Shown here: positions 5,501-59,782 of the stretch, in pieces
Position numbering within the stretch: position 1 is the stretch's first letter
Layout: each line of letters begins with the position of its first letter
From: Okamejei kenojei
Lineage: Eukaryota
DNA length: 64,000 nucleotides
Assembly (NCBI GenBank): GCA_035221665.1
Contig: CM069131.1
Coordinates: forward strand, 9,486,001 to 9,550,000
Reading direction: 5' to 3'
Notes under the pieces: model-generated
The model's database searches: none
Seen by the model: the letters and a program-made list of their open reading frames with translations, nothing else
What the model was told of the DNA's origin: nothing
Position numbers and translations under genes: made by a program

Positions 5501-5995
<495 letters not shown>

Positions 5996-19654: not shown

Positions 19655-19904
19655 GGTTACACAAAAAGCTGGAGAAACTCAGCGTGCAGCAGCATCTAAG
19701 GAGTGAAGGAGATAGGCGACGTTTCGGGTCGAGACCCTTCTTCATTTTGGCATATAATGCATAAGGGTCGTAGAAGAATCTGAAGAAGGGTCTCGACCCG
19801 AAACGTCGCCTATCTCCTTCGCTCCTTAGATGCTGCTGAACCCGCTGAGTTTCTCCAGCTTTTTGTGTAACCCTCGATTCTCCAGCAACTGCAGTTCCTT
19901 CTTT
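19655..19904. mobile_element. Fold-back Penelope-derived mini-element (two inverted hammerhead-bearing tails)
   Basis: ~90-bp inverted arms around a ~35-bp spacer; direct repeat AACACCTTCACACAGTA at 19638-19654 and 19905-19921. Confidence 0.85.
19780..19807 (+). ncRNA. Minimal type I hammerhead ribozyme motif
   Basis: CUGAAGA-A-[GGGU CUCG ACCC]-GAAAC-GUC: intact catalytic core, 4-bp stem II, palindromic ACGU stem III; activity untested. Confidence 0.7.
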
Positions 19905-20689
19905 AACACCTTCACACAGTATATGGAATGAGCTGCCAACTATATGGAAAGTAGTTGAGGCAAATACCACCACAAAAATTAAAAGACATTTGGATAGGAA
20001 CCTGGACAGGGAAGGTTTAGAGGGATATGGGCTAAATGCGGGCAGGTGGGACTAGTGTGGATGGGGCTGCTTGGCTGGCATGGGTAAGTTGGGCTGAAGG
20101 GCCAGTTACTGTGCTGTATTACTCTATGACTCCAAAACACCCATACCACTCATGTGATTTATCTTATGCATCATATGCCAAATAGTGATGTTGAACAGTG
20201 TTGACCGTGCAAAGCAAAATTAGTGTGCTCTGGTGAGGATTGTGGTATGCAGGCACAGTTAAACAATTGTTTGGGCCAAGAATGTAGGAACCGGTCTTGA
20301 TTAGAACCCAGTGCCTGCCTGACCTACTAACAGTGTGAAGCAGAACCATGAAACTTTACAGATGGTTACATTATTTATTTGGATTGGGAAGCGTCGGTTA
20401 CGATCCTCAGCAAGGGACCCAGCTGCGCCCCGCTGCATCAGTTTAGCCATGTTCCTGTCCACATGTTTGACCACATCACCAACTCATCATTCAATAAATT
20501 TGCCTGAACATGGCCTCTCCACAGGAAGCGACACTTAACACCTCACCGCCTGCTGTGAGTGATATTTCTCGCTTAACTAGAAATACAATGCACAAAATTA
20601 TACTGAAGCGCATGGATTTACGATTCCTTCGTCCGCTGTGTTTCGTACAATGTGGGGTTTGATGCAGCAAAGAATTTCTCAATCAGCTT

Positions 20690-20962
20690 AGTTTAGTTTA
20701 GTTTAGTTTAGAGATAGAGTTTAGGAAACAGGCCCTTCGGCCCACCGAGTGCTCGCCGCCCAGCGATCCCCACGCACATTAACACTATCCTCCACACACG
20801 AGGGGCAAATTATACTTATATACCAAGCCAATTAACCTACATACGGCACCTGTATGTCTTTGGAGTGTGGGAGGAAACAGAAGATCGCGGAGAAAACCCA
20901 CGCGGTCACGAGGAGAACGTACAAAATCCATACAGACAGCGCCCGTAGTCAGGATCGAACCC
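20690..20962 (-). mobile_element. V-SINE (5' truncated)
   Basis: (TTTAG)n tail and V-domain on the minus strand. Confidence 0.85.
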
Positions 20963-21907
20963 TTTGTGCTCCCTGGACCCTGCCTGACCCGCTGCATTAC
21001 TCCAGCACTTTGTGTTTTACTCAAGATTATAGCATCTTCAGTTGCTTGGGCCTCCACGAAGATCTCGTTCCCCAAGTCATTAGGAAATGTCATTAAAGCT
21101 ATGGTTTCCTTTCTGAAACACTAGAATTTGTTACTTTAAATTCTTTGGTGACATAAAAGCACCAGAATCAAGAATAAGAGCATTACATTTGCATCCAATC
21201 TCCTACTGAACTTTGGAAGTTCATCAGGAAGTTTTACTAAAACTCCATGTTAAATCCAAGGTGGCATTTTAACTCTTAAGATCAGGTGGGATGGGAGCAG
21301 TGGAAAAGGATTTTGTTTTTATTACCCAGGGTGAGCTTTGAAGGATCGGTAGTTCAGCAGATGTCATGGTGCAGGATCCATGAATTAAATATCTTTGGAG
21401 CTTTGGAGACACGGGATACTGCAGGTACTGGGATCTTGAGCTAAAAACAAAGAGTTCTGGTGGAAATTAAGCTGTTCAGCAGACTTGATGGGCCGATGGG
21501 CTTGATTCTGCTCACAAAACTTATAAACTTACGAACTTATGGAATGTCGAGCCAGGGAGAGAAATAGTAGATAGAACAGGGGCAGGAAAATAATGAGGCT
21601 GGGAAGTAGGAAGGGGTGGGTGATGAGGGGGATGGTGAAGGAGGAGGAAGGCAAAGTGACGGGGTAACAGACACAGGATGGAGCAAAGGGAAACGTATAT
21701 GCGAGAAGCTGGGTAGATGGTCAGCACAGGGCGTGATTTACTAGAAATGTGGAGAATGCAATGGTCTTACGTTGGGTTGTAGGCTATCCAAGGGGACATG
21801 AGGTGCTGATCTTCCACTTTGTATTGGACAAGGACATACAGGTCAGTATGGGAATGGGAATGGAAAAAGTCTGGCAACTAGGAGATCCAGCCGGCACTGG
21901 CACTGGG

Positions 21908-22215
21908 CGGCACGGTGGCGCAGCGGTAGAGTCGCTGTCTTACAGCTCTTGCAGTGCAGGAGACCCGGGTTCGATCCCGACTACGGGTGCTTGTCTGCAC
22001 AGAGTTTGTACGTTCTGCCCGCGACTACATGGGTTTTCTCCGAGATCTTCGGTTTCCTCCCACACTCCAACGGCGTACAGGTTTGTAGGTTATTTGGCTT
22101 GGTATAAGTGTAAATTGTCCCTAGTATGTGTAGGGTAGCGTTAATGTGTGGGGATCGCTGGTTGGAGGGCCGAAGGGCCTGTTTCCAGGATGTATCACTA
22201 AACTAAACTAAACCA
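21908..22215 (+). mobile_element. V-SINE, full length
   Basis: GGCACGGTGGCGCAGCGGTAG head, GGGTTCGATCCC B-box, V-domain, (CTAAA)n tail. Confidence 0.9.
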
Positions 22216-22667
22216 AATGCTGCCTGGCGCTGAGTTACTCCAGTGTCTTTGTTTTGTTCCTTGCTTCTACAAGATCCGACTGCTGGTGGGATCATGTTGA
22301 AGCTAGCCAAAAAATGGAAAATTGTGTGTATGGGGATTAATTGGATAGTACTTTTAAAGACCGGACATACAAAAAATTGGTTGAATTGTTTCCTTTTGTA
22401 CTGTGTGATTTAGTGACTGCATAATCGGATACAGGGACATGTATTATGCTCCTTCAGCGTTTGCACCAACCTTGTATCAGTGTTAACTGCAAGAAGGAAC
22501 TGCCGGTGCTGGTGGTCTTGTCACCTTGACAGCCAGTGCAAGATTGATTATTGGCTGAATATTGAACTGGTGTTGCTCAGTAAATGTAACAGTTGAACTC
22601 GCCTAATCCAGAAGCAACAGCCAAAGAGTTAAGTGACTCACAAATCATTTTTATTTCATCTCTGCAG

Positions 22668-22793
22668 AGGAGGACGAGTGTGCCAGACACGACCATGGAG
22701 GCTGTGAGCAACAATGTGTGAACACTTTGGGTAGTTACAAGTGTACCTGTGATCCAGGATATGAACTTGCAGCAGACAAGAAAAATTGTGAAG
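22668..22793 (+). CDS. TLL1: Tolloid-like exon, calcium-binding EGF1 ([42 protein letters not shown])
   Basis: tctgcag| acceptor, GTAAAT donor; 126 nt, phase 1->1; six cysteines and the DEC / CxNTxGSYxC cbEGF signature. Confidence 0.94.
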
Positions 22794-22941
22794 GTAAATA
22801 TTGTACATTAACTTACATGAGGATATTGCCTCGATGCTGCACATAGTGTTTGTTCTGCTACTCTCTGGTTAAACTCTTTAGCCGCCTGCTAATGGCTCGC
22901 CAATGTTTGTCCCCATTGCAGCACTGGTGGAAGTAGTGCCT

Positions 22942-25105
22942 TTTCAAGGTTTCATGGTCAGTTTATTGTCACATGCACCAATTAAGGTACAATGAAATTT
23001 GAGTTACCATACAGCCATACCAAGTGAAAAGCAACAATAACCATATAATAACCATATAACAATTACAGCACGGAAACAGGCCCTCTCGGCCCTTCCAGTC
23101 CGTGCCAACTATTTGTTTTCCCCTAGTTCCATCTACCTGCACTCAGACCATACCCCTCCATTCCCTTCACGTCCATATACCTATCCACTTTACTCTTAAA
23201 TGTTAAAATCGATCCTGCCTCCACCACTTCTGCTGGAAGCTGATTCCACACAGCCACCACCCTCTGAGTAAAGAAGTTCCCCCTCACGTTACCCCGAAAC
23301 CTCTGTCCCTTAATTCTCATGTCATGCCCTCTTGTTTGAATCTTCCCTACCCTCAATGGGAAAAACGTATCCACGTCAACTCTGTCTATCCCTTTCATCA
23401 TTTTAAAGACCTCAATCAAGTCCCCCCTTAATCTTCTGCGCTCCAAAGAATAAATACCTAACTTGTTCAACCTTTCTCTGTAACATAGTTGCTGGAACCC
23501 TGGCAACATTCTAGTAAATCTCCTCTGTACTCTCTCTATTTTGTTGACATCCTTCCTATAACTAGGCGACCAAAATTGTACACCATACTCCAGAATTGGT
23601 CTTACCAATGCCTTGTACAATTTTAACATTACTTCCCTACTCCTATATTCAATGCTCTGATTTATAAAGGCCAGCACACCAAAGGCTTTCTTTACCACCC
23701 TATCTACATGCGATTCCACCTTCAGGGAACTATGCACAGTTATTCCTAGATCCCTCTGTTCCACAGCATTCCTCAATTCCCTACCATTTACCATGTACGT
23801 CTTATTTTGATTTGTCCTGCCAAGATGTAGCACTTCACACTTATCAGCATTAAACTCCATCTGCCATCTTTCAGCCCACTTTTCCAAATGGCCCAAATCT
23901 CTCTGTAGACACTTTGAAAATCTACTTCATTATCCACAACACCACCTATCTTAGTATCATCTGCATACTTACTTATCCAATTTTCCACCCCATCATCCAG
24001 ATCATTGATGTACATGACAAACAACAGTGGACCCAACACAGATCCCTGAGGCACCCCACTGGTCACCGGCTTCCAACCTGACAAACAGCCATCCACCATT
24101 ACTCTCTGACATCTCCCATTCAGCCACTGTTGAATCCATCTTGCTACTCCGCCATTAACACCCAAAGATTGAACCTTCTTAACCAACCTTCCATGGGGAA
24201 CCTTGTCAAAGGCCTTACTGAAATCCATATAGACAACATCCACTGCTTTACCCTCACAAATTTCCCTAGTTACCGCTTCAAAAAATTCAAGAAGGTTTGT
24301 CAAACATGACCTTCCAGGCACAATCCATGTTGACTGTTCCTGATCAGACCCTGTTTATCCAGATGCTTATATATATTATCTATAAGTATCCTTTCCATTA
24401 ATTTGCCCACCACTGACGTCAAACTAATAGGTCAATAATTGCTAGGTTTATTCTTTAACAAGACTCATAACCACATAAAAGTGAACATAAACATCCATCA
24501 CAGTGGATTCCACATTCCTCACTATGTTGGAAGGCAATAAAGTTCAATCTTCTCCCTCTTGTTCTCCCGCAGTCGGGGCAGTCAAACCATCCGCAGTCGG
24601 GGAAATCAAAGCCCTCGCAGCCGACAATCGAAGGCGCTGTCGGGGTGATCGAAACTCCCGCGTCAGGGCGGTTGAAACTCTCTCCGCAGCACGGAGCTCC
24701 CGAGTTGGCCTCTTCTTACCAGAGACCGCGGGCGGGCTTCACGATGTTAAAGTCCACAGGCCCTGCGATTGGAGCTTCGATCCCCGGCAAAGGGATCGCA
24801 AGCTCCGCGATGTTGAAGTCCCGCAGACTCCCGCGGCTTGGAGCGCCATGTCGGTCTCCAGGAAAGGCCGCCAATTCCACGATGTTAGGCTGCAGTGCGG
24901 ACGGAGATACGATATGGAAAAAAAATCGCATCTCCGTCGATGTAAGAGATTGGAAAAAAAAGTTTCCCCCAATCTCCACCACCCCCCACATAAAACAAAC
25001 CAAGGAACACTAAAACATACTTTTAACACATACAAAAAATAACAAAAAGAAGAAAGGACAGACAGACTGTTGGTGAGGCAGGCACTGCTGGTGGTGCCAC
25101 CCGGT
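22942..25105 (-). mobile_element. Long non-LTR 3' UTR-like repeat hosting a nested CR1
   Basis: GTGACAATAAA + short-repeat tail at 22942-22975 (same tail at 9830-9895); resumes at ~24457 with GC-rich CGATGTT-containing subrepeats. Confidence 0.5.
23036..24455 (-). mobile_element. Young CR1-type LINE 3' portion (RT domain, one frameshift near 23900)
   Basis: ORFs 23788-24321 and 23123-23896: RSCLTNL, DFSKAFD, GVPQGSVLGP, YADD, VRPILEYGVQFW; AACCATAT-repeat tail. Confidence 0.93.
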
Positions 25106-25763
25106 GTAAAATTAACCCATCTTTAAGATGGGTTAAGATCTGGTAGAATACTTTTTGGATGGGCAGCTATTCTACTTGTAATACAACACTTTTGATAACA
25201 TGAGAAAAGGCAATTTTTCACACATAAAACATTCAAAACATTCACCTTTCTGTGTTTTTTGCTCTGCTTTAGCCCTTTTTGTGCAAAATTAATCAGAGTT
25301 TATTGGATTACTTTTCAGTTTTTCCACTTTTAATTTTCACGCCAGCTTTCTTACTTTAAACCTTTCTCCTCCTGAGGGAATCAAGCAATCAAAACTCAGT
25401 GCAAGTTATGGCCTGCAATGAGGATGTCTTAAGTCACAGCTGAATCTACCTTGTGAAGAGATTCTAAAGTTAAAGAGTCATAGAGTGATACAGTGTGGAA
25501 ACAGGCCTTTCGGCCTAACTTGCCCACACCGGCCAACATGTCCCTGCTACAGCAGTCCCACCTGCCTGCGTTTGGTCCATATCCCTCCAAACATGTCCTA
25601 TCCATGTAAAAATGTCCCTTGCATGCCTATTTCTTCAATGCTAACATAGCACTTAGCTATTTAAATAACTACTTGTAATACCAGGCGAGTTGTTGTGTTG
25701 GTATTCATTCTTGCGGAAAGAAATTGAGTTTACAATTGAACTTTGCTATTTTTTTAATTTTAG

Positions 25764-25924
25764 CTGCCTGTGGAGGACTCCTGTCAAAGTTAAATGGAAC
25801 AATCACCACACCAGGCTGGCCAAAGGAATATCCTCCAAATAAGAACTGTGTTTGGCAAGTTGTGGCTCCCACTCAGTACAGGATCTCTATGCAGTTTGAA
25901 TTTTTTGAGCTAGAAGGCAACGAT
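25764..25924 (+). CDS. TLL1: Tolloid-like exon, CUB3 first half ([54 protein letters not shown])
   Basis: ttttag| acceptor, GTAAGT donor; 161 nt, phase 1->0. Confidence 0.95.
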
Positions 25925-26009
25925 GTAAGTAATCTAAACGTTATTGGATTACAAATTGAACATTCTTAATATTAGGTAAATAGTAACCCATACAATGTGA
26001 CAAAGCTAT

Positions 26010-26760
26010 ATTAGAGAGCCATTGAGTCATACAGCACGGAAACAGGCCCTTCACCCCAACTCGTGCATTCTGACCAAGTTCAATCTTCTAAACTAGTCCC
26101 ATTTGCCCGGGTTAGAGTGCTACAGTGTGGAAACAGGCCCTTCGCCCCAACCTGCCCACACCGGCCAACATGCCCCAGCTACACTAGTCTCACCTGCCTG
26201 TGTTTGGTCCATATCGCTCCAAACCTGTCCTATCCAGGTATCTGTCCAACTGTTTCTTAAATGTTGGGATAGTCCCAACCTCAACTACATCCTCTGGCAG
26301 CTAGTTCCATACACCCCACCACTCTTTGTGTGAAAGGTCACCTCTCAGATTCTTATTAAATCTTTTCCCCTTCACCTTATGTGTTTGGCCCATATTCCTC
26401 CTAACCATTCCTATCCATGTACCTGTTCAAAGTGTCTTGTTAAATATTGTTCTAGTTCCTGCCTCAACTTCCTCCTCTGGCAACACATTCCATAAATCCA
26501 CACTCTACGAGAAAAACCTGCCCTTTTGGTACTAAATATTTCCATCTCATCTTAAATTTTATCTTCTCAGTTTTGTGATTCCCCTACTCTGGGTAAGGGA
26601 CTCTGTGCATTCACCTTCTCTAGTACTATCAATATCTTATACATCTCTAAAAGATCACCCCTCATCCTCCTGCGGTCCAAGGAATACCGTCCTTGCCTGT
26701 CCAACCTCTCTCATTAGCTCAGGCCCTCAAGTCCTGGCGGCATCCTTGTACATTTTCCCT
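26010..26760 (-). mobile_element. Cluster of nested CR1 3' fragments
   Basis: Repeated GGAAACAGGCCCTTC 3' UTR ends and CR1 C-terminal remnants. Confidence 0.7.
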
Positions 26761-28004: not shown

Positions 28005-28177
28005 AATATGCAGGAAGGAACTGCAGATGCTGGTTTAAACTGAAGATAGACACAAAATGCTGGAGTAACTCAGCGAGACAGGCATCATCTCTGGAGAGAA
28101 GGAATGGGTGACGTTTCGGGTCGTGACCCAGTCTGAAGAAGGGTCTCGACCCGAAACGTTACTCCAGCAATTTGTCT
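28005..28177. mobile_element. Fold-back Penelope-derived mini-element
   Basis: 14-bp TSD ATCCATTCAGACAG (27991-28004 / 28178-28191); minus-strand tail followed by + strand CTGAAGAAGGGTCTCGACCCGAAACGTT (28133-28160). Confidence 0.8.
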
Positions 28178-28532
28178 ATCCATTCAGACAGTAGACACAA
28201 GTAACTGCATATGCTGGTTTACAAAAGAAATACACAAATTGCTGAGGTACCTCAATGAGTTAGGCAGCATCTCTGGAGAACATGGATATGCAACGTTTCA
28301 GGTAGGGACCCTTCTTCAGACCAAAGAAGGATCCCGATCTAAGTTGCCACATCATCTATCCTCTCCACAGATGCTGCCTGATATACTGAGATTCTCCAGG
28401 ACTGTGTTTTGCTCAAGATTCCAGCATTTGTAGTTTTTTTGTGTCTCAAGTTCGGATACAACTGGAAAGGCTGGTTATCTGAAATTGTTGAATTCAGTTG
28501 AAATTCAGTTGATTTCAGTGTTGATTCCCCAT

Positions 28533-30043
28533 GGGCCTGGCACACTTAGGCGACTGCAGGAGACTATGCAGTCGCCACATGTTCGCAGGTGGTTGCCGGG
28601 GAGTCGCCTTGATGTTCGTGAGGAGTTCCCGCATTCTGGGAACTAGTCGCAGCCTCATTATGGTCGCCGTGAATTTTTTCATCATGTTGAAAAATTAGCG
28701 GCGACTAGAATGAAGCCGCAATGGAGAGCAGCGAGAATTCTCGAGCTGTAGGTGGGTCGCCAGGAGGTCGACGGTTCTCGTATGATCTTGTAGGTTGTAG
28801 CCGGTGCTGACCGGTGAATTTAATTGGCTCATTGGGAAAAAAAACGTACGCAGTAGTTTTCAGAACCAAGGATAACCGACCGGTAATGTTAATGTCCGCC
28901 GAGCTTCACAGCCGTGTATCTCTGGCTTCTTAAAGGTTGTCTCCACTTGTTCACCCTCATTCAGGTCCCCTATCCCCCCCCCCCCCCTTCACCCCTAACC
29001 CCCCTCTTTTAAAGGATAATAGACAATAGGTGCAGGATTCGGCCATTCGAGCTGGCACCGCCATTCAATGTGATCATGGCTGATCATCTCCATCAGTACC
29101 CCGTTCCTGCCTTCTCCCCATGTCCCCTGACTCTTCTATTTTTAAGAGCCCCAGCCAGCTCTCTCTTGAAAGCATCCAGAGAACCTGCCTCCACCACCCT
29201 AGGAGGCAGAGAATTCCACAGACTCACCACTCTCTGTCAGAAAAAGTGTTTCCTTGTCTCTCGTTCTAAATGGCTTACTCCTTATGTTACTACTTTCTCA
29301 ATTCTGTTAACCCTTGCTGTCTCCTCTTCCCACCTCTCCCTCAGCCCTCGGGCCCTGGCATTCTCTCTCTCTCTATCTCTCTCCCCCACCCTAGTCGCAC
29401 TAGCTTCTCATTTTCACACCACAAACAGCTTACAATGGCTTGTTCCCTTTATCATCGATACTTTTTTGCATATCTTTCATTCATTGTTTTTTATCTCTCC
29501 ACATCACCGTCTATATCTCGCGTTTCCCTGATCCCTGACCAGTCTGAAGAAGGGTCTCGATCCGAAACGTCGCCTATCTCCTTCGCTCCTTAGATGCTGC
29601 TGCACCCGCTGAGTTTCTCCAGCCTTTTGTGTACCCTCCTTATGTGGCCGCTGGTTCTGGACTCCCCCAACATCGGGAACATGTTTCCTGCCTCTAGCGT
29701 GTCCAAACCCTTAACAATCTTATATGTTTCATATAACTTACCGTAAAGTGAACTTACCGTACACTGTGCTTTTACCATCTTAATTACAGCGCCAACCTTC
29801 CTGTTCATCGTGGAGTGTGTCTGTATCACCTTGGCTTTGCACCATGTGAATTTCACTCAGACAGCGCTCCCCCCACTTGCCCTGTCCCCCGCCTGCATAA
29901 CGGGCTGGGGAAGGACGCGATCTCTTTGTGTGTGTGTTCCACTCTGACAGTCGCCGTTCCAGTTGCCGGCTTTTCAGGCGAGTGTCGGGAACTTGGCAGT
30001 CGCCCGGCAGTCGCCTTAAAAATCGCCTAAGTGGGACAGGCCC
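28533..30043. mobile_element. PIF/Harbinger-like non-autonomous DNA transposon with nested CR1 and PLE insertions
   Basis: TIRs GGGCCTGGCACACTTAGGCGA / TCGCCTAAGTGGGACAGGCCC; internal blocks shared with 61840-62706; CR1 piece ~29015-29735 is itself split by a PLE tail. Confidence 0.75.
29288..29635 (+). mobile_element. Penelope-like 3' end with hammerhead motif (29544-29571)
   Basis: 10-bp TSD CTCCTTATGT (29278-29287 / 29636-29645); nearly identical to 59400-59742. Confidence 0.85.
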
Positions 30044-30304
30044 ATAAGGAGTACAATATGCCTAGTCAAAACCTTAATAAACTTTAGCTGAGCTTGAGTG
30101 AGATGTATGACAGATTTGAGAGTGGGATGCAGAATTAAAATAATAGACAACCAGATGCTCAAGGTCACTCTCGTGGGCATAGCAGAAGTACGCATAAAGC
30201 ACATTGTGAGCACCAAATGCAGTAGTTTAAAGTAGAAGTGAGTGGATACTTCACCAAGCAACAGCTATTGTATCACCTTGATTATAGGCAAAAGTACCTT
30301 CCGA

Positions 30305-30512
30305 AGTTGGACACAAAATGCTGAAGTAACTCTGGATAGAAGGAATGGGTGACCTTTCGGGTCGCAACGCTTCTTCAATCTGAGGAAGTGTCTCGACCGC
30401 GAAACAACACCCATTCCTTCTCTCCAGAGATGCTGCTTGTCCCACTGAGTTAACTCCAGCATTTTGTGTCCTACTTCGGTGTAAAGTAGCATCTGCAGTT
30501 CCCTCCTACCCA
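30305..30512. mobile_element. Degenerate fold-back Penelope-derived mini-element
   Basis: Inverted tails meeting at ..CTTCTTCAATCTGAGGAAG..; imperfect flanking repeat ACCTTnnGAAGTTGG. Confidence 0.7.
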
Positions 30513-30811
30513 CCTTGGGAAGTTGGGTTGCGTAACTGACGGAAATGCAAGTGCGATCCAGAGATCCATGGAGGAAGTTGTGAGGGAGGGGAAGAGGGGA
30601 AGATGTGCCTAGTGGAGGAACCTATCCTTGGGGAGGTGGAGAGAGGATAGGGGCAAAAGTGGAAATAACTCAATAGATACAATTAAGAGCCCTGTGGAGG
30701 GAAAGCCACAGTTAAAGAAAAAGGAAGACATCTCGGAAATTTTGGGAAGGAAGGTGTCATAGTCGGAATAGATTAAATGGAACTGGACGAGCTGGGAATA
30801 GTGAATAAAGT

Positions 30812-31120
30812 ATAGTTTAGTTTAGTTTAGTTTAGAGACACAATGCAGAAACAGGCCCTTAGGCCCACCGGGTCCACACCGACCAGCGATCCCCGCACAT
30901 TAACACTATCCTACACCCACTAGGGACAATTTTTACATTTACCAAGCCAATTAACCCACATAACTGTGGGAGTGTTGGAGGAAACCGAAGATCTCGTAGA
31001 AAGGTCACGGGGAGAACGTACAAACCCTGTTAGGACAGCACCCGTAGTCGGGATGGAACCCGGGTCTCCGGCGCTGCTTTCGCTGTAAGGCAGCAACTCT
31101 ACCGCTGCGCCACCATGACC
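30812..31120 (-). mobile_element. V-SINE
   Basis: (TTTAG)n tail, V-domain and tRNA head on the minus strand. Confidence 0.88.
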
Positions 31121-32334
31121 ACCCTAAATAAGATAGTAAAATTATAAGAAGCATGAAGGAGGATGTGTGGTCATGTTACCCAGGTGTGTTTGGCAGCTAG
31201 CAATAGGTAATGGCTGCTAACCTGTCACCTGAGATAGAGATTGGGAATTCCAGAAGGGGAAGAGAAGTATCAGAAATGGAGCATGAAACTGAGAGCAAGG
31301 CAGCAAAGGTCTTGAGGCCTTTGAGTTCAGTATGAAATTCCACCACCTTTCTTCCCAGCACCATTAGGATATCAACACCTTTAGCACCATCAACATTTGC
31401 ATCTCAGTCTCCATTGGGCCCTACCCAGTCGAAACCATGCCCTTTGTTCTCGCCTCCCCTGTCGCACTATGCTTGGTTTCTGACCTTGTCCTCTTCTGAT
31501 GCAAGATCATCAACCCTGAAATATTTCACTGTCCATATGTGGTACCTGAAGAAGGGTCTCGACCTGAAACGTCTCCCTTTCCTTCTATCCAGAGATGATG
31601 CCTTTCCCGCTGAGTTACTCCAGCATCTTCTGTCCATCCTTTGGTACCTGACCCATGAGTGTCTCCATCACTTTGTGTCAGATTTCCAGGATTTTTTCTT
31701 TTATAGCAGTTTCTTTGTTTTGTAGCCACTTGGAAGGCAATTTAGGTTTGTTCTGGTCACATGAAAACTGCAATAAAGAAGTGTTTGTTTTGTTACCAAT
31801 GGGAGATTCCTGCCACTTTACAGATGCTAAGTTGGTCTGCCAAGGTATAGTTGCCTTGGTCTTCAATCTAAAATCCATTCTGCAGGCAGATTTAGTCTGT
31901 TCACTATTCACTGTCGCACTCCCATTGTTGGCAATTCAACAGTGGCAACACATCACCTGGCAGGACTTTGTGTTCCTCTTCTCCCTTTGTTGTTACATCT
32001 CTTCATTGATCGATACCGGCCTTTGTAAGAATGCTCTGCCTGTACATTCTTTGTCACTCATTGTCAAACAGAATGAATTAAAGAGATAATTATCAAGAAT
32101 TATCAATTTATTCTGCAGGGAGACGAATATTTATAGGTCTGCCCTTCATTAAAAGAAAGGATTCTGTGATCTAAAGCTCCTTGGGGAGAATTCCCATCGC
32201 GGAGAGTGCACCTTGAAGCGTGCAACCCTTAATATTCTGTCCAATAAATAAATGAAAAATTGTAGACGATAAGCTCATGACTTTGTAAAATGTGTTTTCA
32301 GTGACAGCCACTATCTGCTGACACTGCCAGATTG

Positions 32335-35970: not shown

Positions 35971-36285
<315 letters not shown>

Positions 36286-38914: not shown

Positions 38915-39118
38915 GTGTGTAGAAAGGAACTGTATTTGCTGGTTTAAACCAAAGGTAGACACAAAAAGCTGAAGTAACTCAGCATCTCTGGAGTAAAGGA
39001 ACAGGGACGTTTCGGGCCGAGACCCTTCTTCAGACTTACTCGACCTGAATCGTCACCTGTTCCTTTTCTCCAGAGATGCTGTCTGACCAGTTGAGTTACT
39101 CTGTCTTTTTGTGTCTAT
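38915..39118. mobile_element. Fold-back Penelope-derived mini-element; intact hammerhead core on minus strand (39006-39033)
   Basis: 12-bp TSD CACTTGGACCAA (38903-38914 / 39119-39130); inverted tails. Confidence 0.82.
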
Positions 39119-39376
39119 CACTTGGACCAAACTGGGTAAGGAACTGCAAATTTACTTCCTTGGAGTACATAATTGAACCGAAACATGTTAATAAGATTAA
39201 ACGAGAACTTACCAGTTTGAAGTTTGATCTTTATTTTATGAGGAGTTACGATGAGCGATTACGTGAAGAATCCTGCCAGCCCGCATGTGCGTCAATCTTC
39301 AAAGCAGCAGTGTGAAATCACAGGTAACAATAATTGAAGTAACATAGTAAGACCAGAAACTTAGAATTACCAGATG

Positions 39377-43600: not shown

Positions 43601-44767
43601 CCTGTTTCTGTGGGAATAGCAAATCTTGCTGCCAGGAATGGCACCTCGGCTCGTGCCTTTCATCCCCTGGGGTAAGCTCCACGGCTATACCCACGGACTC
43701 GGCGTCTTGGTGGAGACACAAATAAAATCCTGACACGCTCGGAGGGGAACCCTCCTGGGCCTGCAGACTTTTTGGTGGCTTTCCGCCCCAATGGAGCAGG
43801 CACAGTTCTCTCAGGCACCAAGTCTGCAGTCGCTGGTCGTACCGCCAGCGACCCGGTATGTGAGATAGGCGGCCGCCCGCTACCCGCACTCCTGCAGTCT
43901 TCCACAGCTACTCTCCCGGCGGCTCACCTTGACTTCACCTTCGACGCTCTCTCCACACTCGACCTTGTCTCCTGAAAGAAGAATTGCCAAGCACAGAAAG
44001 CGACCTCCGACTAAGTTTAACACTTACCTGAGGGTTTTTAAACTTACCGCTGGAAGAGCGGTGTACCTCCCAGCCGGTCGCTGCGGCATGCATCAGACGT
44101 AATGACGCGCATGCGGGCTGGCGCGATTCTTCACGGAATCACTCACGTGACTCCGAAGTAAAACATGTCACTGATACCATTGCTTAGATTGTCATTTAAA
44201 AAAAAAATCATATTCATTTAGTTAGGTGGAATATAAATTCTCCCAGTTGCCAAGGTGAGGTTAGAACTGATGTCCCTGCCTCACCGATCTGGACTGTGAC
44301 GGCGAGATTCAAGAAATGACTAGAGCCAAAATGTCACCTATCCATTTTCTTCAGAGATGCTGCCTGACCCGTTGAGTCACTCCAACATTTTAGTGTCCAT
44401 CTTTGGTATAAACCAGCATCTGCAGTTCCTTGTTATTCTCATAATTTACAGTTATATCAGTGTACACCCACTGTGGTCATGCTGGAAATAAATAGACTGG
44501 ATCCAGTCATTTTCCATTGCCTGTTTGATGCCAGAACCATTATTTTGGAGCTCAATGCCATCAATGCCTTCTGTGGCCATTCAGATAATAATCTGACTTC
44601 CTGAGTAGCACAACTGCAGCATCTCGGGTTCAATCCTGTTCTCAGGCGCTAAGTGCATGGAGTTTCCACGCCCTTCTGCGAGAGCAGGACTTTCCTCGGG
44701 GAGGTTGACAAAAGTGCTGGAGAAACTAAGCGGGTGCAGCAGCATCTATGGAGCGAAGGAGATAGGC

Positions 44768-44795
44768 GACGTTTCGGGCCGAAACCCTTCTTCAG
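44768..44795 (-). ncRNA. Minimal hammerhead motif variant with UUCG loop
   Basis: Minus strand CUGAAGA-A-[GGGU UUCG GCCC]-GAAAC-GUC in a PLE tail (44705-44800). Confidence 0.65.
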
Positions 44796-44952
44796 ACTGA
44801 TCAGCGGTAAAGTTTCTGCTTTACAGCAAATGCAGTGCCGGAGACCCGGGTTCGACCCCGACTATAGGTGCTGTCTGTACAGAGTTTGTACGTTCTCCCC
44901 GTGACCTGCATGGGTTTGCTCAGAGATCTTTGGTTTCCTTGGGCAGCTCTGA

Positions 44953-46875: not shown

Positions 46876-46954
46876 GTGAATCTCTGTATGTATTTATTTA
46901 TTTAGCATCATTGAGCCACTTAGAATGGCAATAGGCTCCGGGAGGGGAGTGGCA

Positions 46955-52591: not shown

Positions 52592-52717
52592 ATAAAGACG
52601 AATGTTCCAAAGACAATGGAGGCTGTCAACATGAGTGTGTCAATACAATAGGCAGTTATGTTTGTCAGTGCCGAAACGGATTTGTACTACATGAAAACAA
52701 ACATGATTGCAAAGAAG
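52592..52717 (+). CDS. TLL1: Tolloid-like exon, calcium-binding EGF2 ([42 protein letters not shown])
   Basis: polypyrimidine tract + cag| acceptor, GTATGT donor; 126 nt, phase 1->1; translated by hand. Confidence 0.95.
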
Positions 52718-53429
52718 GTATGTGTTGGTTCGGCTGCTTAGACAAATGCATTTATTCATTTGATAGATAAAGCACCAAGTGAATTGATGTAATATCTCAG
52801 GACATTAATTCTCAGCTGCCTTAAAGCACAGCATTGCAGCAGGAAATTTTGGGAACAGCCTGGGGATAAGGAAGAAGACATAGTGGTGTTTTATCAGATT
52901 TGATGGTCATTGTAATCAAATGTTAATACTGTTCTCCTCCCCGGATTTATTTGTGATATGCTCAGTATTTCCAGCATTTTGTTTTTATTTCAGATTTGCT
53001 TCAGAGGTTACGGGGAGAAGGCAGGAGACTGGGGTTAGGAGGGAGAGATCAGCCATGAGTGAATGGCGGAGTAGACTTGACCTAATTCCATGAATGGCCT
53101 AATTCTACTCCTATTCCTTGTGACCTTATTTACATCATCTGAATGGGCAGCCCACTTGTGCAGTTGGTAGAACTGCTGCCTCATAGCGCAAGAGACCCGG
53201 GTTTGTTCCTGTCCTCTCTGTGGATGCACCGTTTTCCTTCCACATCCTAAAGACGTGCAGTTTTGTCGGTTAAATGGCTTCTAAAAATGTCCCCAATGTG
53301 TAGGGAGTGGAAGCGAAAGTGGGATAACATAGAACTTGTGAGAACTCATTGATGATCGGGCTGTTTCCATGCTGTATCTTTCCATCAATCTACAATCAAG
53401 CAATATGCAGTTATTTTCTCCCTACAATC

Positions 53430-54355
53430 TACCATCTATCTACATTTCTTCCCACCCTGCCTCTTGCAAAGATGCTATTCCCATCTTAATTCCTTCATTT
53501 TCGCCGCATCGACCACCAATAGGAGGTTTTCCAATCAAGGGACATTTGGGATGTCCTCACATGTTAGTGAATGTGTTTTCCCCCCTTCTGTCATTGATGG
53601 GTCCCTCACACGCCACTCTTCTGTGTCCTGGAGTTCTGCTCTCGCTCCCCCTCTCTCCAAAAGCAATGACAGAGTTCCCTGATCCTCACCTTTCACCCCA
53701 CCAGCCTCCGCGTCCAACACATCATGCTCCGACATTTCCACTAGTCACATCTTCCCATCTCCATCCCTCTTTCCACCTACGGGAGAATCCCTGTGGCTCC
53801 CTGCTTCTCTCATCCCTTGACACTTAAACCACCCCCTCTCCAGGTACCTTTCCCTACAACCACAGGAGATGCAGCACCTGCCCTTATACCTACCTCCTCC
53901 CTTGACTCCATCCAGAGACACCAGCAGTCCTTCCAGGTGAGACAGAGGTTCACTTGCACCTCCTCTAACTTCCAGCTGCATCCTGCGTTCCCGATATGGG
54001 TTCCTGTACAATGGTGAGACCAAGCCTAGATTCGCCGACCGTTTCGCTGAACTCTTGCGCTTGGCCTGCCAAGGCCTAACAGATATCCCGGCTCACACCT
54101 GTCTCTAGCTAACAGGCCGTCTATCAGGGAACTTCCTTGCCTGAGGTCACATGTTGCCGGCCCCAATTTATCCTGTTTTTTACTTCCTTCCAGTTTTTTC
54201 TACCCGACCCTCCCTACTGCATCCAGTCTGAAGAAAGGTCCCGAGCCAAAATGTCACCTATCCGTTTACTCCAGAGATGCCGCCGGACAGGCTGAGTTAC
54301 TCCAGCATTTTGTGTCTAACTTCGGTGTAAACTAGCATCTACAGTTCCTTTTTAT
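53430..54355 (+). mobile_element. Old degenerate Penelope-like fragment (RT C-terminus, GIY-YIG, 3' tail)
   Basis: SSHPASCKDAIP, SFQVRQRFTCTSSN, GETK remnants; decayed hammerhead motif at ~54228-54256. Confidence 0.78.
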
Positions 54356-54399
54356 TACATGCAATTTATTTATTTTTTTCTCCAAAAATTGGAAGCGTT

Positions 54400-54830
54400 T
54401 ATAGAAAGATAGAAACATAGAAAATAGGAGCAGGTGGAGGCCATTCTGCCCTTTGAGCCAGCACCACCATTCATTGTGATCATGGCTGATTGTCCCCAAT
54501 CAATAACCCGTGGCTGCCTTCTCCCCATATCCCTTGATTCCACTAGCCCCTAGAGCTCTATCTAACTCTCTCTTAAATCCGTCCAGTGACTTGGCCTCCA
54601 CTGCCCTCTGTGGCAGGGAATTCCACAAATTCACAACTCTGGGTGAAAACGTTTTTTCTCACCTCAGTCTTAAATGGCCTCCCCTTTATTCTAAGACTAT
54701 GACCCCTGGTTCTGAACTCACCCAACATTGGGAATATTTTACCTGCATCTAGCTTGTCCAGTCCTTTTATAATTGTATATGTTTCTAGAAGATCCCCCCT
54801 CATCCTTCTAAATTCCAGTGAATACAAGTA
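54400..54830 (-). mobile_element. CR1-type LINE 3' end
   Basis: ORF 54573-54827 (YSLEFRRMRGDL..RTRGHSLRIKG). Confidence 0.88.
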
Positions 54831-55412
54831 TCAGTTGCTTACATTGTGAATTGACTAATGTTTGTTCACAGTGAAATGAATTTATCCCTTTAACATTCTT
54901 GGTTAGTACGGGTGTCAGGAGTTATGGGGAGAAGGCAAGAGGGAGAGATAGAGCAGCCATGATTGAATGGCGGAGTAGACTTGATGGGCCAAATGGCCTA
55001 ATTCTACTCCTATTAATTATGACCTGAGAACAGAAGTCATTTATTGATGGGCTTCCGGGGTTAAAAGCGCGTGTTCATTGAAATATCAGTTCTTAACCTC
55101 CTTTGTGGGATTTGTGAGGGACGTAGCACCTCAGGTTTGACAGACCGCATGAATGTCCTTCCGTGGATTGGTCCAAAATAATTTAGAAGCAAGTCCCTTT
55201 TTTTAACGCCTTACAAAGGTGTTGAACTGGATTTTTTAAAGAATTTTCTCTGGTTTTCTTATTAAAACACATGGACATTTAAATGTATGCAATTTGTATT
55301 GTTTTTTAGTTCAAATTCAGTTGGCCAACAGTAGTGATCATTTGTGTGCATTATTTTAACCACAATGGTCAGTGCCTTATCTCCATTCAATAAGAAATCG
55401 AGCCATTCTTGT

Positions 55413-55705
55413 GTGGCACGGTGGCGCACCTTACAGCGCTTGCAGCACCGGAGACCCGGGTTCGATCCCGTCTGTTAGGAGTTTGCACGTTCTCTCTGTG
55501 ACCCAGTGGGTTTTCTCTGAGATCTTAGTTGCCTCGCACGCTCCAAAGATGTAACGGTTTGCAGGTTAATTGGCTTGATGCAAGTGTAAATTGTCCCTAG
55601 TGTGTGTAGGATACTGTTCATGTGTGGGGATCGCTGGTTGGTGTGGACTCGGTGGGCCGAAGGGCCTGTTTCCGCGCTGTATCTCTAAACTAAACTAAAC
55701 TAAAC
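55413..55705 (+). mobile_element. V-SINE
   Basis: Partly deleted head, V-domain, (CTAAA)n tail. Confidence 0.85.
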
Positions 55706-56441
55706 TGGGAAACCAAATAGTTTAAATTGAGGCTAAAATCCAACCCTGGCATTCCCAAGCACTTATACATAATGCCTGAAAACGAATTGTTTAATTTGAA
55801 ATAGGTCTTAGGAAGCCTCTCGATAGTCTTCTGATATGTGATGGGTAATTTTTTTTTGCTGCATGCTTCATCGCATCTGAACTAGGAAGATCTGTAACAG
55901 CTGGTAAACTGCGTGTAACACGCAGCTGAATTTCCACTGTGTTGTCCCAATGGATGGAGATTCCTGCTGGGACTGCAACATAGAAAATCAGTCATCACGC
56001 CAGCAGCAACAACATATTCCTGCCACATTTGCTCCCGAAAAGGACTGATCTGCCGAGGGATATATGAAGTTTGATGCATAGGATGTTTTCACATGTGCGA
56101 AACATGACTGGGCCGCAGATATTAAAGAATCACTAATATAAATAAAATAATGAATTCTTGAGATAATCATGTACTGGATAATACATGAGATAATATTGCC
56201 TATTGTCCATCAAACAAAATAAACATTTCCTTGCTGATATTCAAGGAACAGCTTTGCAGGCTTTTACTCTTGGATTTAAAATTCAGCAGATATTCTGGTG
56301 GCTTCTGCCACAAAGACAGCTGGAATATAATGGAGGGAAAATGCTGTAGTTCATCTAATAAATTGAATAGTCCATTTGGCTTACGTTAATCTTCTGCTGC
56401 TCATTAAAGCTTTGCTCCTGTGAATAGGCTCTGCCGTTATT

Positions 56442-57615
56442 ATAGACAATAGACAATAGGTTTAGGAGTAGGCCATTCGGTCCCTTTGAGCCAGCACCGC
56501 CATTCAATGTGATCGTGGTTGATCATCCCCAATCAGTACCCCGTTCCTGCCTTCTCCCCATATCCCCTGACTCCACTATGTTTCAGAGCCCTATCTAGCT
56601 CTCTCTTGAAAGTATCCAGAGAACCGGCCTCCACCGCTCTCGGAGGCAGAGAATTCCACAGATTCACAACTCTGAGAAAAAGTGTTTCCTCGTCTCCATT
56701 CTAAATGGCTTACCCATTATTCTGAAACTGTGGCCCCTGGCTCTGGACTCCCCCAACATCGGGAACATGTTTTCTGCCTCTAGCGTGTCCAAACCCTTAA
56801 TAATCTTATATGTTTCCGTAGTATACAATCCCAGCCGCTCTATTCTTTCAGCATATGACAGACCCGCCATCCCGGGAATTAACCTTGTAAACCTATGCTG
56901 CACTCCCTCAATAGCAAGAATGTCCTTCCTCAAATTAGGTGACCAAAACTGCACACGATACTCCAGGTGTGGTCTCACTAGCGCTCTGTACAACTGCAGA
57001 AGAACCTCTTTGCTCCTATACTCAACTCCTCTTGTTATAAAGGCCAACATGCCATTCGCTTTCTTCACTGCCTGCTGTACCTGCATGCTTACTTTCATTG
57101 ACTGATGAACAAGGACCCCCAGATCCCATTGTACTTCCCTTTTTCCCAACTTGACACCATTTAAATAGGTAAACTGCCTTCCTGTTTTTGCTACCAAAGA
57201 GGGTAACCTCACATTTATCCACATTAATCTGCATCTGCTATGCATCTGCCCTCTCACCCAACCTGTCCAAGTCACCCTGCATTCTCGTAGCATTCTCCTC
57301 ACAGTTCACACTGCCACCCAGCTTTGTGTCATCTGAAAATTTGCTAATGTTACATTGAATCTCTTCATCTAAATCATTGATGTATATTGTAAATAGCTGT
57401 GGTCCCAGCACCGAGCCTTGCGGTACCCCACTAGTCACTGCCTGCCATTCTGAAAGGGACCCGTTGACCCCTACTCTTTGTTTCCTGTCTGCCAACCACT
57501 TCTCTATCCATGTCAGCACTCTAACCCCAATACCATGTGCCCTAATTTTGCCCACAAATCTCCTATGTGGGACTTATCGAATGCTTTCTGAAAGTCCAGG
57601 TACACTACATCCACT
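56442..57615 (-). mobile_element. CR1-type LINE RT 3' portion (frameshifted)
   Basis: GVPQGSVLGP, FSDDTK, LVRPHLEY..VQFWSP; (ATAGACA)n tail. Confidence 0.92.
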
Positions 57616-57752
57616 GCTTATTGATCACATTACAGTGATTTGCTGGGACTCTGTTTTATGAGTACATTTATTTTGTTATTTATATGCAAAGTGTCTTGAT
57701 TATAACACTGCTCTGCTGATGAACTAATTGGCGATGTTACTTTCTATCCCAG

Positions 57753-57880
57753 CGGAATGTGAACACAGGATTTACAGCGTCACTGGTCCCATCACAAGTC
57801 CCAATTGGCCTGATAAATATCCTAGTCGCAAAGAATGTACCTGGGAGATCTCTGCAACTCCAGGCCACAGAGTGAAGATT
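57753..57880 (+). CDS. TLL1: Tolloid-like exon, CUB4 first half ([43 protein letters not shown])
   Basis: cccag| acceptor, GTAAGT donor; 128 nt, phase 1->0; [18 protein letters not shown] is TLL1-like. Confidence 0.94.
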
Positions 57881-58130
57881 GTAAGTTTATGAATGGAAAA
57901 TGTAATATCTTTTAATATGAGTGCTGGTTATCATATTATACTTCATGACTAAGCTAACCTTAAAAATGTAAATGCCCTGCCACAAAATATTTTCTCTCAT
58001 TTTTCTGTAAAATTTGTAGATGATCCAATTGGTCCACTTGTAAATGACCCAATCAGATATTTTAGAAATTATGGAAAAATGTTAAATGTTTCTGTAATTT
58101 TTAAGATAACCAATTGGATCATCTACAAGG

Positions 58131-59782
58131 GTTACACAAAAAGCTGGAGAAACTCAGCAAGGGTTAACAGAATTGAGAAAATTAAATATTCAAGCCCAAA
58201 GGATGCAGACTCCCCAAGCGGAATATGAGGTGCTGTTCCTCCAACTTGCGGTTGCTCACTCTGGCCATGGAGGAGGCCCAGGACCGAGAGGTCGGATGTC
58301 GAATGGGAGGGGGAGTTGAAGTGCTGTGCCACCGGGAGGTCGGGTTGGTTTTTGCGGACCGAGCTGAGGTGTTTGGCGAAACGATCGCCAAGCCTCCGCT
58401 TGGTCTCACCGATATAGATCATCTGGCATCTGGAGCAGCGGATGCAGTAGATGAGGTTGGAGGAGGTGCAGGTAAACCTCTGTCGGACCTGGAAGGACTG
58501 CTTGGGTCCCTGACTGGAGTGGAGGGGGGAGGTGAAGGGACAAGTGTTGCATTTCTTGCGGTTGCAAGGGAAAGTGCCCGGTGAAGGGGTAGAGTGGGAG
58601 GGGAGGGAAGAATTGACAAGGGAGTTGCGGAGGGAGCGGGCTTTGCGGAAGGCAGACAGGGAGGGGGGGGAGATGGGAAGATGTGGCGGGTGGAGGGGTC
58701 ACGTTGGAGGTGGCGAAACTGGCGGAGGACTATGTGTTGTATTTGCCGGCTAGTGGGGTGAAAGGTGAGGACCAGGGGGACTCTGCCCTGTTTGCGAGTG
58801 GGGGAATGGGGAGAGAGGGCATTGTTGCGGGGTATGGAGGAGACCCTGGTGCGAGCCTCATCAATAGTGGGGGAGGGGAATCCCCGTTCCCTGAAGATTG
58901 AGGCCTATTTGTGATGACCTGGTGTGGAACACCTCATCCTGGGAGCAGATGCGGCGTAGACGGAGGAATTGGGAATAGGGGATGGAGTCCTTACAGGAAG
59001 CAGGGTGGGAGGAAGAGTAGTCCAGGTAGCTGTGGGAGTCAATTGGTTTGTAGTGGATGTCGGTCAGGAGTGTATCACCTGCAATAGAGATGGTGAGGTC
59101 AAGGAATGGTAGGGAAATGTCGGAAATGGTCCAAGTGTATTTGAGTGCCGGATGGAAGTTGGTGGTGAAATGAATGAAGTCAGTCAGTTGTGTGTGGGTG
59201 TAGGAGGTGACACCAAAGCAGTCGTCGGTGTAACGGAGGTAGAGGTCGGGGATGGGGCCATGGTACGCCGAGATCAAGGATTGTACGACGTACCCAACAA
59301 AGAGGCAAGAGGCCAGAGTGAGCAACCCCGCAAGTTGGAGGAACAGCACCTCATATTTCGCTTGGGGAGTCTGCATCCTTTGGGCATGAACATTGAATTT
59401 TCTCAATTCTGTTAACCCTTGCTGTCTCCTCCCCTTCCCACCTCTCCCTCAGCCCTCGGGCCCTGGCATTCCCTCTATCTCTATCGGCCTCCCCCACCCT
59501 AGTCGCACCAGCTTCTCATTTTCACACCACAAACAGCTTACAATGGCTTGTTCCCTTTATCATCGATACTTTTTTGCATATCTTTCATTCATTGTTCTTT
59601 ATCTCTCCACATCACCGTCTATATCTCTCGTTTCCCTGAATCCCTGACCAGTCTGAAGAAGGGTCTCGACCCGAAACGTCGCCTATCTCCTTCGCTCCTT
59701 AGATGCTGCTGCACCTGCTGAGTTTCTCCAGCTTTTTGTGTAACCCTCGATTCTCCAGCATCTGCAGTTCCTTCTTTAACAC
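58131..59782. mobile_element. Young Penelope-like insertion with internal inversion (minus-strand RT/GIY-YIG body, plus-strand 3' end)
   Basis: 15-bp TSD GGATCATCTACAAGG (58116-58130 / 59783-59797); YLRYTDDCF RT motif, YIGETKRR GIY-YIG; strand switch at ~59309. Confidence 0.92.
59653..59680 (+). ncRNA. Minimal type I hammerhead ribozyme motif
   Basis: CTGAAGAAGGGTCTCGACCCGAAACGTC in the 3' end of the young PLE copy. Confidence 0.72.

Follow-up and report, generated by a model that had tools for sequence, protein, structure and literature searches.

Hammerhead motifs in introns of a TLL1-like gene of Okamejei kenojei are 5'-truncated ends of a Penelope-like element, likely copied from uncleaved RNA

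Amniote-type intronic hammerheads conserve their core above the neutral rate at a fixed host locus. Another kind, the minimal hammerhead at the ends of Penelope-like elements (PLEs), was described in 2014 and is reported from the pLTRs of metazoan PLEs, including Xena, Poseidon and Neptune of fish (Cervera and De la Pena 2014, PMC4209133). A CX2-5CxxC linker between reverse transcriptase (RT) and endonuclease (EN) is a feature of Neptune and Nematis (PMC8557442), and only Neptune and Poseidon have been reported in vertebrates (Li et al. 2026, 10.64898/2026.07.22.740005). PLE insertions with inverted pLTRs carry a one-sided tail of 30-40 bp (Arkhipova et al. 2013, PMC3846280; Craig et al. 2021, PMC8557442).

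The window analysed here is a stretch of 64,000 nucleotides of O. kenojei (GCA_035221665.1, contig CM069131.1, forward-strand positions 9,486,001 to 9,550,000), positions within a motif or stub being counted from C3 of the core. It holds eight exons of a plus-strand tolloid gene whose catalytic exon lies 74 kb upstream and agrees with TLL1 (3edi) in 58 of 59 residues, a closer match than that to BMP1. Exon edges were inferred from the peptide and splice consensus; thus delimited, the plus-strand exons include CUB exons at 15789..15984, 25764..25924, 36079..36259 (Pfam PF00431) and 57753..57880 and EGF exons at 22668..22787 and 52592..52717, the first, second and last of the CUB exons preceding the introns with the motifs at 19089-19807, 28133-31573 and 59653, respectively. 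All pieces of the motif family in the window are intronic within this gene, as the preliminary description had held for tolloid introns. The 28-nt hammerhead-like motif is real: a degenerate pattern with at most one mismatch found 10 matches in the window, 8 of them exact, against a mean of 0.00 over 100 shuffles. Plus-strand cores lie at the C3 positions first listed (19780, 28133, 29544, 31546 and 59653, with a variant at 19089), and the predicted cut positions 19807/8, 29571/2 and 59680/1 were correctly placed; the minus cores at 39006-39033 and 44768-44795 are also present, although the numbers given for them were their low ends. That list had omitted an intact minus core at 28292-28319 and a near-intact one at 19718-19745, and its roughly ten decayed copies were an undercount, since an nhmmer profile run over the whole window yields 36 pieces (22 plus, 14 minus). 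Describing the core as intact had overstated competence: stem I has no pair at 31546 and at most one at 19780 and 39033, so that core, 4-bp stem II, ACGU and 2-bp stem I coincide on the sense strand of the window only at 28133, 29544 and 59653. Among the nine matches of an Rfam covariance-model scan at E<=5 none was a hammerhead, whereas a generic minimal-hammerhead descriptor returned 50 matches in 660 kb, 48 of them from this Penelope family, and one to four in each of three shuffles.

The core at 59653..59680 (plus strand; CUGAAGA, an extra A, 4-bp stem II, GAAA, ACGU and GUC, with a 2-bp stem I formed with upstream GU) belongs to a single inverted-type PLE insertion comprising both arms, 58131..59782, recognised from sequence, blastn, ORFs and Pfam GIY-YIG. 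Its minus arm (58132-59448) carries RT motifs, a CxxxxCxxC linker and GIY-YIG, its plus arm (59311-59782) the endonuclease end, 3' UTR, hammerhead and long tail, and a 15-bp direct repeat lies on either side (58116-58130 and 59783-59797). The copy at 29342..29638 (plus; core 29544-29571) is a young pLTR with 3' UTR and a short end (+93), and that at 18913..19183 (plus; variant core 19089-19116, AUGU replacing ACGU) belongs to an older subfamily, also with UTR. Head-to-head pairs of 5'-truncated pLTR stubs include 19655..19909 (cores 19718-19745 minus and 19780-19807 plus; one arm short-ended, the other long-ended), whose predicted hairpin reaches -181 kcal/mol, 28012..28162 (plus core 28133-28160, tail deleted beyond +29), 28194..28439, which contains the intact minus core, 30298..30508, decayed with both cores broken, and 38918..39125 (minus core 39006-39033). 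Solo stubs lie at 31544..31672 (plus; core 31546-31573, without stem I) and 44674..44800 (minus; core 44768-44795, stem II with a U-G wobble).

Genome-wide, the exact motif occurs 55,100 times and a 35-nt tail word of the young subfamily 39,331 times. Two of 20 fetched loci (L105 and L110) have a pLTR-ORF-pLTR layout of about 3.9 kb in which hammerheads flank the ORF region and an identical ORF start follows the tail, and both natural ORFs scanned join RT (PF00078) with GIY-YIG (PF01541) at the C terminus in one frame. The element family shows pLTRs, a one-sided 30-40-nt tail and an inverted truncated copy, and the RT-EN linker CNRKKCNTC of the window ORF 58132-58698 fits CX2-5CxxC. Judged from these sequence features, the carrier is a Penelope-like retrotransposon, likely of the Neptune clade, Neptune being preferred to Nematis because of the vertebrate distribution reported by Li et al. 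As in PAc (Poseidon_Ac of Anolis carolinensis; Frangieh et al. 2024, PMC11167929), the hammerhead lies near the pLTR-ORF junction; the Neptune-type CxxxxCxxC linker sets the present family apart from PAc.

The proposal of a Penelope-like carrier with a minimal type-I hammerhead in its pLTR ends is thus upheld. The core CUGANGA / GAAA / UH of the PLE minimal hammerhead is present, the unpaired extra nucleotide between 9 and 10.1 (after A9) is A in 97% of sampled copies, the G10.1-C11.1 pair is G-C or G-U in 170 of 209, and 15.2/16.2 are palindromic, the three larger subfamilies all having ACGU in their majority rows, with CpG decay in old copies; helix III cannot form within a monomer, as had been proposed. 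These features match the type I core of Cervera and De la Pena, and so do occurrence in both pLTRs, thousands of copies per genome and mostly solo dispersal with some opposite-strand pairs: 329 sampled pieces comprised 157 solo copies, 116 head-to-head arms and 56 UTR-linked copies, tandem (head-to-tail) pairs being only occasional. The differences are that helix I here has 2 bp, as in the D. virilis variant and not the 4-5 bp of schistosomes, that helix II has 4 bp, and that copies exceed 55,000 against 4,000-9,000 in coelacanth and Xenopus. Type I hammerheads in non-coding sequence derived from PLE pLTRs are shared with the non-LTR retrozymes of Li et al., although those are head-to-tail tandem units, each with its hammerhead, whereas the copies here are dispersed or head to head. 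They resemble the inverted-pLTR insertions of Arkhipova et al. and Craig et al. in head-to-head order, one-arm tail, target site duplications (TSDs) and microhomology joins, but most pairs here span no more than some 200-260 bp, and their two arms each break off at or within the hammerhead.

Conservation sets these motifs apart from the amniote type, since the core decays like the tail across copies and catalytic G12 is lost in 45 of 154 (29%). Non-CpG mismatch amounts to 105/1561 (6.7%) in the core and 299/4505 (6.6%) in the neighbouring tail; the preliminary description had named a lack of excess conservation of the core over the tail among the outcomes that would count against it, and this is what the copies show. 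Within positions 0..27 the three larger subfamily rows differ only at loop II, and 18 of 58 tail positions vary over all four rows. Wobble-neutral A16G and A28G changes occur in copies, double compensatory changes in stem II were found neither among this genome's copies nor in the subfamily rows, and the tail, with an 8-bp helix (47-54:105-112) and a 4-bp hairpin, likewise yielded no compensatory changes; covariation is described among families in PMC4209133, the comparison here being confined to one genome. A covariation search at stem II pair 9/18 gave 650 matches, of which, by hand tally of the first 100 listed, 26 pair and 62 are A-A; this A-A class was considered as a stem-broken yet mobile subfamily and discarded, all 20 fetched copies having the same flanks as passengers inside another repeat. 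Stem I has at most 2 bp (U-A or U-G, then G-C), the third position being A-C in 107 of 138, none of 21 folds gives it a predicted probability above 0.009, and the hammerhead fold was predicted to be disfavoured in all folds tried.

Stub starts read from profile alignments cannot be followed beyond -5, where they are censored, and unknown UTR types confound them; rates were therefore taken from 100 consecutive young-subfamily copies, whose anchor begins at +28, so that 5' ends lying further 3' fall outside this sample. In it, 43 5' ends fall at -7..0, 22 at +1..+15, two at +16..+19, none at +20..+28 and 33 further upstream, which gives 0.101 ends per nt at -7..0 against a background of 0.0018, a 55-fold rate; one of the 43 runs on into another UTR type and two loci of the set resemble one duplicated site, all being retained. 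The pile-up spreads over about 8 nt and trails into the motif, and genome-wide a non-element base stands at -4 in 3,580 copies and at -3 in 4,073. Neither the text of PMC4209133 nor that of PMC11167929, as far as each was available, describes such a pile-up of genomic 5' ends just before the core. No 5' end lies at the predicted cut site (+28) among the 100 young copies, nor any start at +28 among 273 non-UTR pieces of an unanchored sample; PAc likewise gives no sign of ends at the ribozyme cut site, and the family also shares with it two 3' end sites defining the tail and, putatively, priming of both strands. The 3' ends are bimodal here, near +92 and +127, about 35 nt apart, and head-to-head pairs combine one long and one short arm in 21 of 23 young and 44 of 58 older cases. 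TSDs of 8-25 bp accompany 23 of 54 solo copies.

Taking these observations together, we consider it highly probable that the motifs are 5'-truncated end pieces of 95-135 nt from a Penelope-like element, likely Neptune, which carry a minimal hammerhead, decay like their own tails and were likely copied from uncleaved RNA by an internally initiated RT that likely ran off the 5' end just upstream of the ribozyme. By analogy with the PAc biochemistry (PMC11167929), the template would be uncut element RNA, the element protein would bind just downstream of the hammerhead, reverse transcription would start internally at two sites and both nicked strands would be primed. The enzyme would then run off the template where its 5' end lies, closely upstream of the ribozyme, the stop marking a putative transcription start within an initiator-like YCAGT with A at -3; in the parent element, the hammerhead would depend on a second copy, and probably on the protein, to fold. 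Fold predictions pair the core's 5' half with the distal RT start site (3-10 with 118-125). On the scale of the genome, the end statistics support the in vitro finding that uncleaved RNA serves as template, argue against ribozyme-cut RNA defining the inserted copy, and predict an element RNA 5' end near -3. A more far-reaching version, which we put forward tentatively and with less than even confidence, is that the stubs, by tens of thousands, record the 5' end of Penelope RNA, with transcription starting about 3 nt before the hammerhead, the first 130 nt forming one closed domain and the protein starting inside it on uncut RNA, mostly to leave strong-stop-like stubs, two per insertion and head to head; under this reading the ribozyme would act as a protein-gated switch where the RNA begins, in place of cutting the template free.

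The strongest competitor, to which we concede an appreciable though minority chance, retains the same element and neutral stubs and takes the 5' pile-up to mark, along a longer RNA, a roadblock or a hotspot of joining instead of a transcription start. RT might stall after the hammerhead domain, at a bound protein or at an upstream splice-acceptor-like pyrimidine tract, branch-like motif and CAG, or the odd palindrome TCAGTCTGA might favour microhomology joins. Upstream pLTRs of full-length copies reach more than 200 nt beyond -3, so longer templates exist, and a third of young copies pass through with a constant low drop-off. Stub junctions show microhomology of 1-3 nt in 11 of 23 cases and inserts of 6-8 nt in 6 of 23, which would suit such joins, and a clear cap G is absent: a single extra G stands at only two of 23 TSD-resolved junctions, and base counts at -4 (A 42, G 36, T 22, hand tally of the first 100 listed) give no clear signal, the chi-square against genome-like composition (p=0.01) reflecting both purines up and T down. 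The CAG ahead of the core is kept across differing UTR types, and a D. virilis intron ends at helix I (PMC4209133). Against a roadblock stand the sharp upstream edge of the pile-up, at a similar position whether copies are solo or inverted and across subfamilies that differ in their UTRs, and the lack of spliced joints among those listed (no GT-AG among 15 listed of 36 in RNA contigs of four runs). The same contigs, which like those of all 24 RNA runs listed are assembled and lack true ends or strand, show no end pile-ups. The CAG was also considered as a splice junction with a shared upstream exon, which was rejected because TSDs abut the stubs directly and no GT-AG occurred among the joints listed.

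We think it improbable that the 95-135-nt stubs form a self-propagating SINE- or retrozyme-like family, transcribed from a promoter inside the stub itself (with an initiator at -3 and ACGT at +27..+30 as downstream element) and mobilised in trans. Fixed 5' and 3' ends and TSDs would fit, as would the downstream RGACGTGY element in the internal promoter of D. virilis Penelope (PMC2377424), which the motif here matches at 5 of 8 letters; but ends differ from copy to copy, young stubs match the autonomous pLTR wherever the two align and have subfamily markers in common with long copies, tandem arrays are rare, and an ORF-start sequence, which the Anolis protein requires downstream of its start sites, is missing from the stubs.

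The preliminary description had further suggested that, within a single TLL1 pre-mRNA, several sense copies could pair with one another through ACGU and cut the transcript as it is made, with an effect on the gene. The family is genome-wide (about one exact copy per 50 kb) and without strand bias in the TLL1-like gene (61 sense, 52 antisense; core-intact 14:16), although over 166 kb of it core, stem II, ACGU and 2-bp stem I coincide in seven sense and three antisense copies. Copies 19780 and 28133 lie inside head-to-head hairpins. Competent sense copies number three in the window; one is hairpin-locked, and the remaining two lie in separate introns at a distance of 30 kb. All five sense copies have an antisense neighbour no more than 4 kb away, whose pairing (-43 to -179 kcal/mol) far exceeds that of ACGU:ACGU (-1.7). 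With core and tail decaying alike and the fold disfavoured, cis-cleavage is not supported and we regard it as extremely unlikely, even if schistosome dimer and trimer constructs gave low cleavage in vitro (PMC4209133), since the Anolis PLE hammerhead does not cut in the absence of its protein (PMC11167929) and, in published work, splicing still took place when an intron was cut by a slow hammerhead (PMC2995048). The hammerhead in scattered intronic stubs is most likely idle and, given some 55,000 exact copies genome-wide and decay equal to that of adjacent sequence, the intronic motifs likely do nothing to the tolloid gene; the copies look neutral there, and the finding matters little as it stands. 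The abundance of inverted pairs makes long double-stranded RNA a likelier effect on host pre-mRNAs than cleavage. Non-LTR retrozymes are reported to be depleted in introns, whereas copies here are not depleted in the TLL1-like gene, where they reach 6.8 per 10 kb against 4.25 in random blocks (range 0-11), with the excess on both strands.

A degenerate pattern for the 28-nt motif, allowing at most one mismatch, matched at 10 positions in the window and at none in 100 shuffles, and the feature is real. Plus-strand cores lie at 19780, 28133, 29544, 31546 and 59653, with a variant at 19089, all where the preliminary description had placed them; its minus-strand list held for 39006-39033 and 44768-44795 but lacked 28292-28319 and 19718-19745. 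A profile search recovered 36 repeat pieces in the window. The assignment of the motif to tolloid introns was borne out, the window carrying eight plus-strand exons that encode CUB and EGF segments, and the catalytic exon 74 kb upstream sharing 58 of 59 residues with TLL1. Because this exon matches TLL1 better than BMP1, all window copies are, on sequence comparison, intronic in a TLL1-like gene. The same window holds, within a TLL1 intron, a tyrosine recombinase ORF (PF00589; 40816-42719, minus strand) adjoined by a second ORF that looks RT/RNase H-like by eye and has no Pfam match, together likely the remnant of a retrotransposon of what we take to be the DIRS type. Other non-LTR retrotransposon RT ORF fragments lie at 11519-13914 (minus), 23123-24354 and 56599-57573 (minus), and a GT/CG-rich compound microsatellite at 62301-62760 yields spurious long ORFs.

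Minimal hammerheads have already been described in the pseudo-LTRs (pLTRs) of fish Neptune and Poseidon elements (Cervera and De la Peña, PMC4209133), the article reporting an extra nucleotide after A9, a G10.1-C11.1 pair, palindromic 15.2/16.2 positions, solo copies by the thousand, pairs on opposite strands and low activity as dimers. The features tested here agree with that description, as anticipated, and by them the motif appears to belong with the minimal hammerheads of Penelope-like elements (PLEs), its cleavage being putative. A hammerhead scan against Rfam, suggested earlier, reported none in the window. Identity of the copies as tandem retrozymes was rejected.

Numbering from C3 of CUGAAGA as position 0, the predicted cut falls between +27 and +28. 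We took as a young set the first 100 listed of 39,331 genome-wide exact matches to a tail word starting at +28, and extended each upstream against a natural pLTR. Forty-three had their 5' end at -7 to 0, 22 at +1 to +15 and two at +18/+19 within the motif, and none at +20 to +28, the predicted cut site included, while 33 ran further upstream than -7. The rate of 5' ends was thus 0.101 per nt at -7 to 0 versus 0.0018 upstream, a 55-fold excess; one of the 43 extends into a UTR of a different type and two loci resemble a single duplicated site, all being kept. Genome-wide, a non-element base was found at -4 in 3,580 copies and at -3 in 4,073, in agreement with the young set. At the other side, 3' ends concentrate around +92 and +127, and head-to-head pairs of truncated pLTR stubs combine one long and one short arm in 21/23 young and 44/58 older cases. 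Of 54 solo copies, 23 lie between target-site duplications (TSDs) of 8-25 bp, with microhomology or short inserts seen at 5' joints. PLEs described in PMC3846280 and PMC8557442 likewise show inverted pLTRs, a one-sided tail, TSDs and microhomology joins; in the main texts of the PLE literature searched, a pile-up of 5' ends ahead of the hammerhead is not described.

The exact motif occurs in 55,100 copies in 2.76 Gb, and the family is not special to tolloid. In a 660-kb sample (260 kb around the gene plus 40 blocks of 10 kb; 329 pieces), stub density was 6.8 per 10 kb in the gene versus 4.25 in random blocks (range 0-11), the TLL1-like region (G000:C1:9391270-9557705) having about 1.6 times the sample density, on both strands. 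The preliminary description had looked to excess core conservation and to stem II covariation; among 159 copies spanning 0 to +80, non-CpG sites off the majority numbered 105/1561 in the core versus 299/4505 (non-diagnostic) in the tail, and no double compensatory change in stem II was found across the sampled copies. Catalytic G12, a CpG site, is altered in 45/154 copies, other CpG sites being alike (19-34%). Within 0 to +27, loop II alone distinguishes the three larger subfamily rows, while across all four rows 18 of the 58 tail positions are variable. Wobble pairing is preserved in the A16G and A28G variants. In these comparisons, selection on source elements shows only weakly.

It had been proposed that sense copies in the tolloid pre-mRNA pair through ACGU and cleave it in cis. 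Of 176 copies that span the motif, just 23 are competent (core, stem II, ACGU and 2-bp stem I); in the 166 kb of gene, sense and antisense pieces number 61 and 52, those with an intact core 14 and 16, and fully competent copies seven and three, respectively. The two stem I pairs anticipated were confirmed, the third position being A-C in 107/138 copies. When seven copies were folded in three contexts each (21 folds), the probability of stem I stayed at or below 0.009 throughout and that of stem II surpassed 0.18 once. ACGU:ACGU pairing is predicted at -1.7 kcal/mol, while each of the window's five sense copies has an antisense copy within 4 kb (predicted pairing -43 to -179 kcal/mol), and the 19745/19780 pair is predicted to form a hairpin of -181 kcal/mol. 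The window's two competent sense copies outside hairpins, 29544 and 59653, lie 30 kb apart in different introns. In Anolis, the PLE hammerhead is reported to require its protein for cleavage (PMC11167929), and splicing of an intron was reported to persist despite cutting by a slow hammerhead (PMC2995048). Host-gene cleavage by the intronic copies is thus not supported by modelling or analogy, neither of which offers anything in favour of cis-cleavage.

Pieces of the parent element (RT, linker and GIY-YIG, from ORFs and Pfam) lie at 58132-59448 and 59780-60172. A single 1.65-kb inverted insertion (58131-59782), flanked by a 15-bp repeat, has the 59653 copy as its direct arm; an AT-rich imperfect palindrome (58000-58142) stands beside the left target-site repeat. 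RVT_1 and GIY-YIG share one frame in both of two long natural ORFs taken from other parts of the genome. Among 20 fetched RT loci, two (L105 and L110) have a motif copy at each side of the ORF region, at a spacing of about 3.9 kb, and an identical ORF start after the upstream tail. The element's CxxxxCxxC linker is given as a mark of Neptune or Nematis (PMC8557442); the PLEs reported from vertebrates are Neptune and Poseidon alone (10.64898/2026.07.22.740005).

Frangieh et al. (PMC11167929) report that a PLE protein binds near the ORF start and initiates internally at two sites, which define the tail; it primes on both of the nicked strands and copies uncleaved RNA. The two 3' ends and the long-and-short pairs fit this mechanism, as does the lack of ends at +28. 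Should the protein initiate at +92 or +127 of the transcript's first pLTR, copying would reach back only to the RNA 5' end, and the genomic pile-up then suggests that the RNA begins at about -3. YCAGT there agrees with the human initiator consensus BBCA+1BW in 5-6 of 6 letters (PMC5287114), and Penelope of D. virilis is reported to have an internal Inr/DPE promoter within its pLTR (PMC2377424). Several observations count against a start site: of 23 resolved junctions only two showed a lone extra G, position -4 is A in 42, G in 36 and T in 22 of the first 100 copies listed (counted by hand), and the upstream pLTR of full-length copies extends past -200. A strong rival explanation of the pile-up is a roadblock, either at the hammerhead domain or at an acceptor-like CAG. 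The interest of the feature rests on the start-site prediction, which is testable.

In predicted folds, core positions 3-10 pair with +118 to +125, adjoining the distal start site, with no compensatory changes found among copies; such pairing would hold the ribozyme off until the protein binds, a lead only. The tail, at window 59700-59765 and in all long copies, also contains two well-paired elements, an 8-bp helix (+47 to +54 with +105 to +112) that encloses the proximal site of 3' ends and a 4-bp hairpin (+63 to +66 with +75 to +78), compensatory changes being sought in both and none found. A head-to-head hammerhead palindrome whose stem II has an A-A mismatch is carried inside another repeat (fetched loci L261-L280, e.g. 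G000:C1:7328516). It makes up about 60% of the first 100 listed of 650 pattern matches and has the same downstream flank in 20/20 fetched copies; judged from sequence, it has been amplified together with its carrier.
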